Shown here: piece by piece, positions 9,947 through 11,018 of the stretch | How the letters are laid out: each line of letters opens with the position of its first letter | Position numbering within the stretch: position 1 is the first letter of the stretch | Virus record (IMG/VR): IMGVR_UViG_3300045988_145100 | Location: 128,001-144,972 of that record | DNA from: a virus | DNA length: 16,972 nucleotides | Reading direction: 5' to 3' (one strand) | The notes under the pieces: model-generated | What the model was told of the DNA's origin: nothing | Seen by the model: the letters and a program-made list of their open reading frames with translations, nothing else | The model's database searches: none | Made by a program: the position numbers and the translations under genes

Positions 9947-9970
9947 AATATTTTGATTTCTTAAAAATTT

Positions 9971-9981
9971 TATGATATAAT
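9971..9981 (+). promoter_or_regulatory. Extended -10 promoter (aaaattttatGaTATAATat), copy 2
   Basis: A 20-bp sequence identical to copy 3 on the other side of the radical SAM gene. Confidence 0.6.
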
Positions 9982-10013
9982 ATATGTATAAAATAAAGAA
10001 AGGAAGATATGTT

Positions 10014-10916
10014 GTGAGTAAAATAAGAAGAATACTTGACTTAGATAATTCATGCGTTATAAAATGGCGTTTAACAGATATTTGTAATTATCATTGTAGC
10101 TATTGTATTCGTAGAGAGTTTATTCAATCAGAAAGTAATCTTACATATGACTTTTCTTTATGCTTAGATGCGGTTGATGATATAGTTAGATTAGCGGGTG
10201 AGTTGAATACTATAAACAACAAGCCCGTTAAGATTGACTTAATTGGTGGCGAGATTACTTTATTCAAAGATTTAGGACTTTTATTAGAAAAATTATATAC
10301 AAGTCCTGCAATAACTAAAGTAAATATTACTACAAATCTTTCTAAACCTGTTGATTATTTTTTAAATTTAATTAGTATAGCAGAAAAATATGGTAAGAAA
10401 TTATCTATGACTGCAAGTTTTCATTATGAGTATACAGATTTAGATACATTTATGGCTAAAGCTGATATAATAAATAAGAAAATAGGTACTAATTTTAAAT
10501 GTGAAACAGTCATTACTGAACAAAATACTCAGGTTCAAGCTTTTATAGATAAATGTAATGAGCTTAATTGCCATTATATGTGTGAAGAAGATTTGTTAGA
10601 TACTTCAAAGCATGGAGAAAAGATTAGAAATTATAAAGTAGGAGATAGATATCTTGTTTGTTTTGATGATGGTCAAGAATTACGCTTCCCTACTAGAAAT
10701 GAAGTTTTAAAACAGTATGGTAAAAATGGTATTGCTATTGATACTAGAGGATTAAAATGCTCAAGAGATAGTGATTATGTGTATGTTGAAAAAAATATGG
10801 CAATTCCTTGTCATAATATGATACCAATAAAGAATTATCGAGTGAGTGAGCGTCCACAGTATTGTCGTATTGGAGAATGTACTCTTTGCGGACATATGAG
10901 TATATTTGATTTTTAA
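10014..10916 (+). CDS. Radical SAM domain protein with a C-terminal Cys cluster. The enzyme family is unresolved.
   Basis: CNYHCSYC (CxxxCxxC) near the N-terminus, followed by the GGE motif (IDLIGGEITLF). The C-terminus carries CxxGECTLCGH plus further Cys residues, possibly an auxiliary cluster. The start is probably GTG 10014 (RBS aggaag 7 nt upstream). The in-frame ATG at 9984 sits inside the -10 element of the promoter and may not be transcribed. Confidence 0.7.
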   Translation: MSKIRRILDLDNSCVIKWRLTDICNYHCSYCIRREFIQSESNLTYDFSLCLDAVDDIVRLAGELNTINNKPVKIDLIGGEITLFKDLGLLLEKLYTSPAITKVNITTNLSKPVDYFLNLISIAEKYGKKLSMTASFHYEYTDLDTFMAKADIINKKIGTNFKCETVITEQNTQVQAFIDKCNELNCHYMCEEDLLDTSKHGEKIRNYKVGDRYLVCFDDGQELRFPTRNEVLKQYGKNGIAIDTRGLKCSRDSDYVYVEKNMAIPCHNMIPIKNYRVSERPQYCRIGECTLCGHMSIFDF

Positions 10917-10923
10917 AAAATTT

Positions 10924-10934
10924 TATGATATAAT
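10924..10934 (+). promoter_or_regulatory. Extended -10 promoter (aaaattttatGaTATAATat), copy 3, upstream of the tRNA cluster
   Basis: Same 20-bp motif as copy 2. Positioned to drive the Pro-His-Gln tRNA array. Confidence 0.6.
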
Positions 10935-11018
10935 ATTTATATAATAAAAAAGACATTTACAGCAAACAATTAATTTCTTTCAAGCAAATGCAAACAGCAG
11001 AAAAATGTCTTGTTATTT

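Follow-up and report, generated by a model that had tools for sequence, protein, structure and literature searches.

A gene for a radical S-adenosylmethionine (SAM) enzyme was examined in a 16,972-nucleotide stretch of viral DNA (the window; positions 128,001 to 144,972 of IMG/VR virus record IMGVR_UViG_3300045988_145100), in which it lies between a tail fibre gene and a tRNA cluster. The gene is a stable resident of a lineage of ~146- to 150-kb gut phages and not a recent insertion, and its product belongs to a family of ~177 clusters that appears to be restricted to phages and phage-like contigs. The protein is a member of a known superfamily, radical SAM, and probably of its twitch subclass; what sets it apart is the C-terminal cysteine pattern and the apparent confinement of the family to phages. 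We tentatively propose that it is a twitch-type enzyme that tailors a nucleotide sugar or glycan intermediate in a phage glycosylation pathway. The locus comprises the following features.

10014..10916, + strand: radical SAM enzyme gene, 300 aa (motifs, homologues, predicted structure)
10000..10006, + strand: ribosome-binding site (RBS) AAGGAAG of the radical SAM gene, 7 nt 5' of the GTG start
9953..9981, + strand: P1, predicted promoter of the radical SAM gene (-35 TTGATT at 9953-9958, 17-nt spacer, extended -10 TGaTATAAT at 9973-9981)
10906..10934, + strand: P2, predicted promoter of the same family as P1, placed to drive the tRNA cluster
11018..11245, + strand: tRNA-Pro(TGG), tRNA-His(GTG) and tRNA-Gln(TTG), the unit 3' of P2
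6887..9946, + strand: tail fibre or pre-neck-appendage-like protein, 1019 aa, the conserved 5' neighbour of the radical SAM gene

The window was compared with eight syntenic loci, consisting of two groups of gut metagenome contigs (L001-L003, up to 146 kb, and L004-L006, up to 137 kb) and two IMG/VR contigs (L013, 150 kb, and L014, 147 kb). A mechanically called open reading frame (ORF) for the radical SAM protein begins with an ATG (9984..10916, 310 aa). The GTG at 10014, giving 300 aa, is the likely start, because the AAGGAAG element precedes it and the same GTG was picked by the gene caller in L001, the 98% relative. A Peptidase_G2 intramolecular-chaperone domain at the C-terminus of the 1019-aa upstream protein, and a match of this protein to a phage pre-neck appendage family, make the label of tail fibre reasonable. 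An initial annotation, made from the letters alone, had described a 300-aa radical SAM gene 3' of a 1019-aa tail fibre; this description was borne out by the ORF, RBS, start and domains, and every motif named in it was found (C24-NYH-C28-SY-C31, G78-G79-E80 and C284-RIGE-C289-TL-C292-GH). A 9-bp unit, AAGAAGAAT (Arg-Arg-Ile), is present once in the N-terminal part of the gene in the window (10026-10034) and as three tandem copies in L001 (10013-10039), where the radical SAM protein is 306 aa long.

Searches of Pfam detected the radical SAM core, PF04055, alone (30.5 bits versus a cutoff of 29.5; residues 20-112). Membership of the superfamily was indicated by this score above the gathering threshold, a partial TIM-barrel fold and the CxxxCxxC and GGE motifs. 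Matches to NCBIfam models were all far under the cutoff and confined to the core: MoaA (TIGR02666; 29.9 bits versus 284), NrdG (TIGR02495; 16 versus 131), QueE (13 versus 206), STM4011 (31.5 versus 200) and viperin (NF038283; 34.1 versus 180, profile positions 3-94 of 281 only). The PADLOC model of pVip gave 40 bits over profile positions 1-80 of 257 only. Neither SPASM model (PF13186 or TIGR04085) was found even at E values of up to 1, and the seven-cysteine CX2CX5CX3C pattern of SPASM was absent, the protein having five conserved C-terminal cysteines with spacings of x16, x17, x4 and x2. Viperin/pVip, SPASM, QueE and NrdG had each been offered as candidates in the initial annotation and were rejected on score and coverage, as were MoaA and STM4011. 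That annotation had considered the family unassignable by eye, and profile and structure searches gave no characterised family either.

The sole full-length family match was to phrog_13987, a phage radical SAM family of unassigned function (E = 1.7e-13, 51.5 bits), with residues 12-296 aligned to profile positions 13-268 of 274. A large protein database yielded 107 matches, ~90 of which were full length and nearly all of which were metagenomic entries without a specific name; the lone NCBI name shown among the homologues was "hypothetical protein." An exhaustive profile search detected 177 representatives at 50% identity with E values of up to 1e-30. No match to the window DNA or to the protein was present in 50,697 annotated phage records, in which a distant family member gave weak tblastn matches to Campylobacter phages CP20, CPt10 and CP220. 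When the full family alignment was used as a degenerate pattern against viral contigs, most of the matches belonged to other radical SAM families, and no paper characterising this family was found in the literature. Tandem paralogues and radical SAM-radical SAM fusions were common in the family, and the partners in fusion proteins were further radical SAM modules or a ~180-aa N-terminal extension without a family.

Profile, structure and weak tblastn likeness linked the family to phrog_13987 and to uncharacterised radical SAM genes of Campylobacter phages CP220, CPt10 and CP21. The genes of the Campylobacter phages come in multiples, as interchangeable modules (PMC2853527). Identity to these genes was <30%, and the window protein itself had no tblastn match; furthermore, the Campylobacter phages infect a Gram-negative host and carry their radical SAM genes in different contexts.

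Conservation was counted over an alignment of 84 full-length homologues. Residues K17, R19, C24, C28, Y30, C31, G78-G79-E80, T106, N108, S135, H137, E164, V166, C249, C266, C284, C289 and G293 were invariant (84/84), and C292 (83/84), R33 (80/84) and K73 (79/84) were nearly so; K162 was retained in 56/84 and replaced by Arg in a further 8, giving Lys or Arg in 64/84. An AlphaFold model of the protein had a mean pLDDT of 95.6 and a pTM of 0.91. The retention of invariant residues by 84 homologues, the confident model and the 67% identity of the protein encoded by L004 argue, on comparative grounds, that the family is a functional enzyme under selection.

A beta-hairpin (255-259 and 262-263) separates C249 from C266 in the model, and C284, C289 and C292 come after this pair. 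Twitch domains, which are short forms of the SPASM domain, are built in the same way, with a cysteine, a beta-hairpin, a cysteine and further cysteines in succession. Foldseek comparisons with the PDB gave a TM score of ~0.5 at best, and near-full-length alignments were obtained only with MoaA and SkfB; as these best full-length structural matches are twitch enzymes, a twitch-like class was supported. The C-terminal domain probably holds one auxiliary [4Fe-4S] cluster; five cysteines would permit one fully ligated auxiliary cluster but not two. The best viral structural matches (TM scores of 0.64-0.67) were ~300-aa uncharacterised proteins, two from Campylobacter phage CP21 and others from uncultured phages.

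A profile alignment to Staphylococcus aureus MoaA placed the cluster motif in register and paired K73 with MoaA K69 and K162 with MoaA K163. The invariant K17 aligned with MoaA R17, which is among the arginines mutated in PDB entry 2fb2, only after a two-residue ungapped extension of the profile alignment. We take the MoaA residues aligned with K17, K73 and K162 to be those that hold the GTP triphosphate, and the presence of conserved basic residues at these phosphate positions is therefore a hint of an anionic, nucleotide-type substrate.

Comparison with characterised enzymes detected clear differences. MoaA, a twitch-type GTP 3',8-cyclase, was matched at only 30 bits (NCBIfam cutoff of 284) and with a TM score of ~0.5; the C-terminal cysteine spacing of MoaA is CxxCx13C, whereas that of the window protein is C-x16-C-x17-C-x4-C-x2-C. 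In addition, D75 takes the place of MoaA R71, the C-terminal Gly-Gly tail is lacking and there are no molybdenum-cofactor genes near the window gene. BlsE, BtrN and SpeY, twitch enzymes of carbohydrate or nucleoside-sugar pathways, were 12-17% identical to the window protein with no family-level match to a hidden Markov model, and these enzymes come from antibiotic gene clusters whereas the window enzyme is phage encoded. The match to viperin and pVip was limited to the first 80-94 of 257-281 profile positions; in contrast to these proteins, the window family has five invariant or near-invariant C-terminal cysteines and is phage borne rather than located in defence islands. Viperins are not known to have an auxiliary cluster at the C-terminal position.

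In the proposed mechanism, C24, C28 and C31 would hold a [4Fe-4S] cluster, with SAM sitting at the GGE motif, and cleavage of SAM by this cluster would generate a 5'-deoxyadenosyl radical that takes a hydrogen atom from the substrate. The auxiliary cluster would be carried by the twitch-like C-terminal domain, like those of BtrN, MoaA and SkfB. The substrate would be anionic and nucleotide linked, a nucleotide sugar or glycan intermediate being the most plausible candidate, and the product may be used by glycosyltransferases of the phage to modify the outer parts of the virion (the fibre) or the envelope of the host. In the window, the candidate pathway partner is the following gene.

4569..6848, + strand: family 2 glycosyltransferase (GT2) gene, in halves 4569-5126 and 6237-6848

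Gene neighbourhoods were examined in ~20 distinct lineages carrying a family member. A glycosyltransferase gene abutted or overlapped the family member in four unrelated phages, with two GT2 genes in L012, a GT1 gene in L172 and a gene for a ~260-aa DXD protein (family motif SDxIRxxIL...YxDTD) in both L176 and L184. At a distance of one to three genes, glycosyltransferase genes were present in the window lineage (in the order GT2, fibre, radical SAM), in L004 and in L182. The three types of glycosyltransferase are not homologous to one another, which argues for a functional link rather than an inherited gene order. By a rough estimate, immediate adjacency to a glycosyltransferase in four of seven loci would arise with a probability of ~0.005 under random placement of the glycosyltransferase within a locus.

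Further genes of a glycan type were present near family members. A UDP-glucose-dehydrogenase-N-like gene was detected in L012, L172 and L183, a Methyltransf_24 gene 3' of the family member in L174 and L189, a GH18 gene in L190 and a gene for a 1006-aa acetyltransferase-domain protein in L188; the ORFs of L180-L187, viral loci with no other annotation, included Stealth_CR2 and an alginate lyase. A Peptidase_G2 fibre gene adjoined the family member in two gene orders (that of the window and L004, and a convergent one in L188), and fibre-like or very large structural genes were nearby in L008, L012, L176, L184 and L186. Radical SAM genes recur in large phages (Campylobacter phages have 11-12 of them), and, QueE and NrdG aside, almost none has an assigned function. 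As this enzyme is compact, confidently modelled, apparently confined to phages and repeatedly located beside glycosyltransferase or fibre genes, it offers a tractable entry to radical chemistry at the phage surface or host envelope. If a modified sugar is made, glycosylation of virions or hosts by phages would extend beyond simple sugar transfer.

Several observations weighed against a role in sugar or glycan tailoring. In approximately half of the ~20 lineages, no gene up to three positions from the family member could be recognised as glycan related, and this sample of neighbourhoods is small and was set against no formal background. The DXD sugar-binding region, PF04488, was the top match for all three DXD proteins but was below the threshold (~17 versus 23 bits; E = 0.007-0.013). 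The libraries and literature searched contained no characterised homologue. Finally, some neighbours were genes of DNA metabolism, namely, those for gyrase (L007 and L008), dUTPase (L010), topoisomerase (L174) and RusA (L181).

These last neighbours, together with RNase H genes beside some members, would fit an enzyme directed at nucleotides or DNA, which would use either a nucleoside triphosphate, like viperin or MoaA, or the bases of phage DNA (hypermodification or anti-restriction) as its substrate. The best core-only matches, to viperin (34 bits in NCBIfam; 40 bits with the PADLOC pVip model) and to MoaA (E = 3e-9 in a PDB profile search), and the conserved basic residues at the MoaA phosphate-binding positions also point in this direction. 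There was no family-level match, however, and no DNA-modification genes were detected in the window. This alternative was judged to be unlikely.

The adjacency of the fibre gene and the structural neighbours favoured a protein or peptide maturase. Such an enzyme would modify the tail fibre, or some other protein of the virion, by epimerisation or, for example, by formation of a thioether or formylglycine, and so stabilise or activate it in the anaerobic gut. We regard a maturase as distinctly unlikely. The radical SAM core begins at about residue 15, with no N-terminal domain or extension fit for peptide recognition, and a check for the small precursor-peptide ORF suggested by the initial annotation revealed no conserved small ORF nearby. 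P1-type promoters serve tRNA and GT2 genes but none precedes the fibre gene, so that co-regulation of fibre and enzyme is not evident. The cysteine content of fibres accompanied by the enzyme was 1.0-1.3% (2.2% in L188), compared with a median of 0.98% in 67 related fibres without the enzyme; with a content like that of related fibres, cysteine-directed modification of the fibre received no support. Furthermore, a fibre gene is missing from the vicinity of many family members.

A different account of the locus concerned its flanks. The initial annotation had interpreted the gene as a moron-like, self-contained cassette inserted into a promoter region and bracketed by two identical copies of a 20-bp promoter sequence. 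The 20-mer AAAATTTTATGATATAATAT was indeed identical on both sides of the gene, with exactly two + strand copies in the window, at 9964-9983 and 10917-10936; the positions originally given, 9966-9985 and 10919-10938, overshot by two bases. A further copy, differing from the 20-mer by 3 mismatches, was located at 15781. With 3 mismatches allowed, the expected number of matches was 0.08, and three or more were reached in 0/200 shuffles. The extended -10 promoter that had been noted at both copies proved to be part of a complete sigma-70-type promoter (TTGATT, 17 nt and TATAAT with an upstream TG; 9953-9981 and 10906-10934), promoters being called by consensus match only. P2 overlaps the 3' end of the radical SAM gene, with its -35 element lying across the final codons and stop codon. 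Repeat analysis grouped P1 and P2 with copies at 15768 and 16898, and a related copy was located at 4508. The additional predicted promoters of this family are as follows.

4508..4537, + strand: same-family promoter 5' of the GT2 gene
15768..15816, + strand: same-family promoter 5' of an AAA ATPase gene
16898..16946, + strand: same-family promoter, 84% identical to P2 over 49 nt

Over this 49-nt length, the copy at 16898 was slightly more similar to the copy at 10904 (84%) than was the copy at 9951 (82%). All five TGATATAAT sites in the window with an A/T-rich upstream block were intergenic and on the + strand, and, where the next gene falls inside the window, these promoter sites were 11-109 nt 5' of a gene or tRNA. 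A sixth TGATATAAT site, at 10463 within the radical SAM ORF, has no A/T-rich upstream block and looks like a chance occurrence. The promoter element was present ~10 times in 20 kb of L004, in which the radical SAM protein is 67% identical, and was again intergenic. It occurred at both radical SAM gene junctions of L004, although YqeY replaces the tRNA downstream, and at the equivalent junction in L001, L013, L014 and L004. Exact copies of AAAATTTTATGATATAATAT were detected in L004 at 319 and 11392, neither of which is a radical SAM junction. With five copies in the window, ~10 in L004 and the exact 20-mer at other sites, the flanking repeats are therefore copies of the promoter that this phage group uses as standard. 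The radical SAM gene would thus be transcribed, as predicted from the consensus, from its own copy of the standard sigma-70-type promoter of the lineage, and the next copy would start the tRNA unit. An exact repeat flanking a gene in an AT-rich phage can be just a consensus promoter.

The residency of the gene was examined in the syntenic relatives. The radical SAM gene was directly 3' of the fibre gene in 8/8, down to a protein identity of 67%, and no empty site (a fibre gene without the radical SAM gene) was found among them. A further 77 loci were found via the fibre C-terminal domain, but these had only that domain in common with the window and were not syntenic. The GC content of the radical SAM gene (0.285, compared with 0.321 for the window), its GC3 (0.156) and its codon-usage distance (0.394, among the lowest in the window) were within the range of neighbouring genes, and a foreign origin was not supported by this native composition. 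Terminator prediction gave no site between 10916 and 11018. Within the L004 lineage, the radical SAM protein was 67% identical while other shared genes had identities of 28-70%.

These results made it improbable that the gene is a foreign, self-contained cassette whose insertion duplicated a promoter and which confers an accessory trait on host or phage. As in lambdoid morons, a single gene with its own strong promoter is located between two transcription units, and in this sense, together with its RBS and its exchangeable behaviour in comparison with L013 (see below), the cassette description was partly upheld. Distant homologues in quite different places in other phages, and the description of Campylobacter phage radical SAM modules as interchangeable (PMC2853527), would also be consistent with a moron. 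However, three of four moron traits were lacking, the gene having its own promoter but no terminator of its own, no relative from which it is absent and no deviant composition (GC of 28.5%, GC3 of 15.6% and a codon-usage distance among the lowest in the window). The promoter flanks are generic and multicopy, the exact 20-mer is found at unrelated L004 sites and the gene is among the better-conserved genes of the L004 lineage. Thus, neither promoter duplication by insertion nor presence/absence polymorphism of the cassette among the eight relatives was detected, and generic promoter repeats without indel polymorphism were just what the initial annotation had said would undermine its interpretation. 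The cassette and duplicated-promoter aspect of the locus is largely ordinary.

The generic promoter repeat nonetheless marks the edges of an apparently exchanged allele. Comparison of the window with L013 in 100-bp windows detected identities of 0.89-0.97 at 9300-9999, 0.59-0.84 at 10000-10899 and 0.90-0.97 at 10900-11199. At this resolution, the block of low identity has the same limits as the stretch enclosed by the two promoter copies, and the ORF within it is the sole strongly divergent segment. The radical SAM proteins of the window and L013 were 75% identical whereas the flanking proteins were 86-99% identical, the mosaic fibre excepted. This pattern of identity suggests that the radical SAM ORF was replaced by a diverged allele through homologous recombination in the conserved promoter sequences, although the drop in identity could instead reflect locally fast evolution of the ORF. 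The two promoter copies seem to serve as conserved flanks for exchange of divergent radical SAM alleles by homologous recombination. In the Campylobacter phages, radical SAM modules form divergent blocks in otherwise similar genomes and were probably exchanged by recombination (Timms et al., PMC2853527). The coincidence of conserved promoters on both sides with the edges of a divergent allele is a point of likeness to promoter-flanked cassettes. Such cassettes undergo shuffling in T4-type phages.

The fibre gene itself is mosaic, its N-terminal and central parts varying in length and sequence among near-identical genomes. The fibre is 1019 aa long in the window and 827 aa in L001, and its protein identity was 72-84% across L001, L013 and L014, in which the C-terminal chaperone domain was 90-99% conserved. 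Mosaicism of this kind is typical of the swapping of host-range modules.

An extended version of the glycan-tailoring proposal, which we put forward as possible though doubtful, is that a phage-specific radical SAM family works with glycosyltransferases to produce unusual sugar or glycan modifications of receptor-binding proteins or of the host surface, with alleles swapped as promoter-flanked cassettes together with host-range determinants. If this is true, a new layer of radical chemistry would be added to phage adsorption, immune evasion or superinfection exclusion.

A tRNA-modifying enzyme serving the tRNAs of the phage itself would account for the position directly 5' of the tRNA-Pro/His/Gln cluster and for the Thg1-like, YqeY and Ro60-like RNA-binding genes and many tRNAs of the lineage, but is highly improbable, as tRNAs were near the gene solely in the window/L004 lineage (0/17 other family-bearing loci) and, beyond the shared core, there was no similarity to MiaB, TYW1, RlmN or QueE.

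Other variation was observed around the locus. The GT2 gene of the window is interrupted by a 1086-bp insertion (5120-6205), which is shared by L014 and missing from L001 and L013, in which the gene is uninterrupted and encodes 397 aa. The insertion encodes a GIY-YIG/NUMOD homing-endonuclease ORF (5371-6033) and has a full-length but sub-threshold group I intron match (5886-6155; 31.6 bits, E = 6e-6). These features indicate that it is probably a mobile group I intron in a phage glycosyltransferase gene. Downstream of the radical SAM gene, comparison of L001 (~11170-12150) with the window (11172-11346) detected a tRNA-Gln cut off after its first ~20 bases in L001; ~950 bp, holding a 255-aa ORF without a Pfam family, replaces the remainder. 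Identity with L013 breaks in a similar way at the same point.

An RNA-oriented set of genes surrounds the locus in this lineage, with a Ro60-like DUF2828/DUF7788/vWA protein (phrog_850, 'RNA-binding protein'), a Thg1-like homologue of tRNA-His guanylyltransferase, YqeY and tRNAs. These genes are located at 11855-13330 in the window, at 18364-19691 in L001 and at 10958-11380 and 17857-18711 in L004; 18 tRNAs were counted in 20 kb of L004 and 5 in the window. The region 3' of the RNA-binding gene in the window (13441-15740) encodes a protein with a CAP (cysteine-rich secretory protein family) domain and one with a putative ice-binding-like adhesive domain (pAdhesive_15), both of which are probably secreted or surface proteins and are unusual for phages.

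In more distant loci, a ~360-aa protein family recurred beside the radical SAM gene (L174, 7985-9073; L182, 7820-8899; L185, 6504-8662). It has an invariant ...IPTxxGGxDTR... motif (TGGLDTR) that is PP-loop-like, as in an adenylating enzyme, and no Pfam or PDB match was obtained. Some distant family-bearing phages also appear, from the positions of in-frame stops, to use reassigned stop codons. An in-frame TGA was present at the near-invariant Trp18 (IK*RLT) of the family member in L174 (7001-7972), L175 and L189 (6001-6987); its occurrence exactly at this position argues that TGA is read as Trp in these phages. In L007 (8001-8912), an in-frame TAG was located at codon 35, and the ORF calls in L185 and L187 were similarly fragmented.

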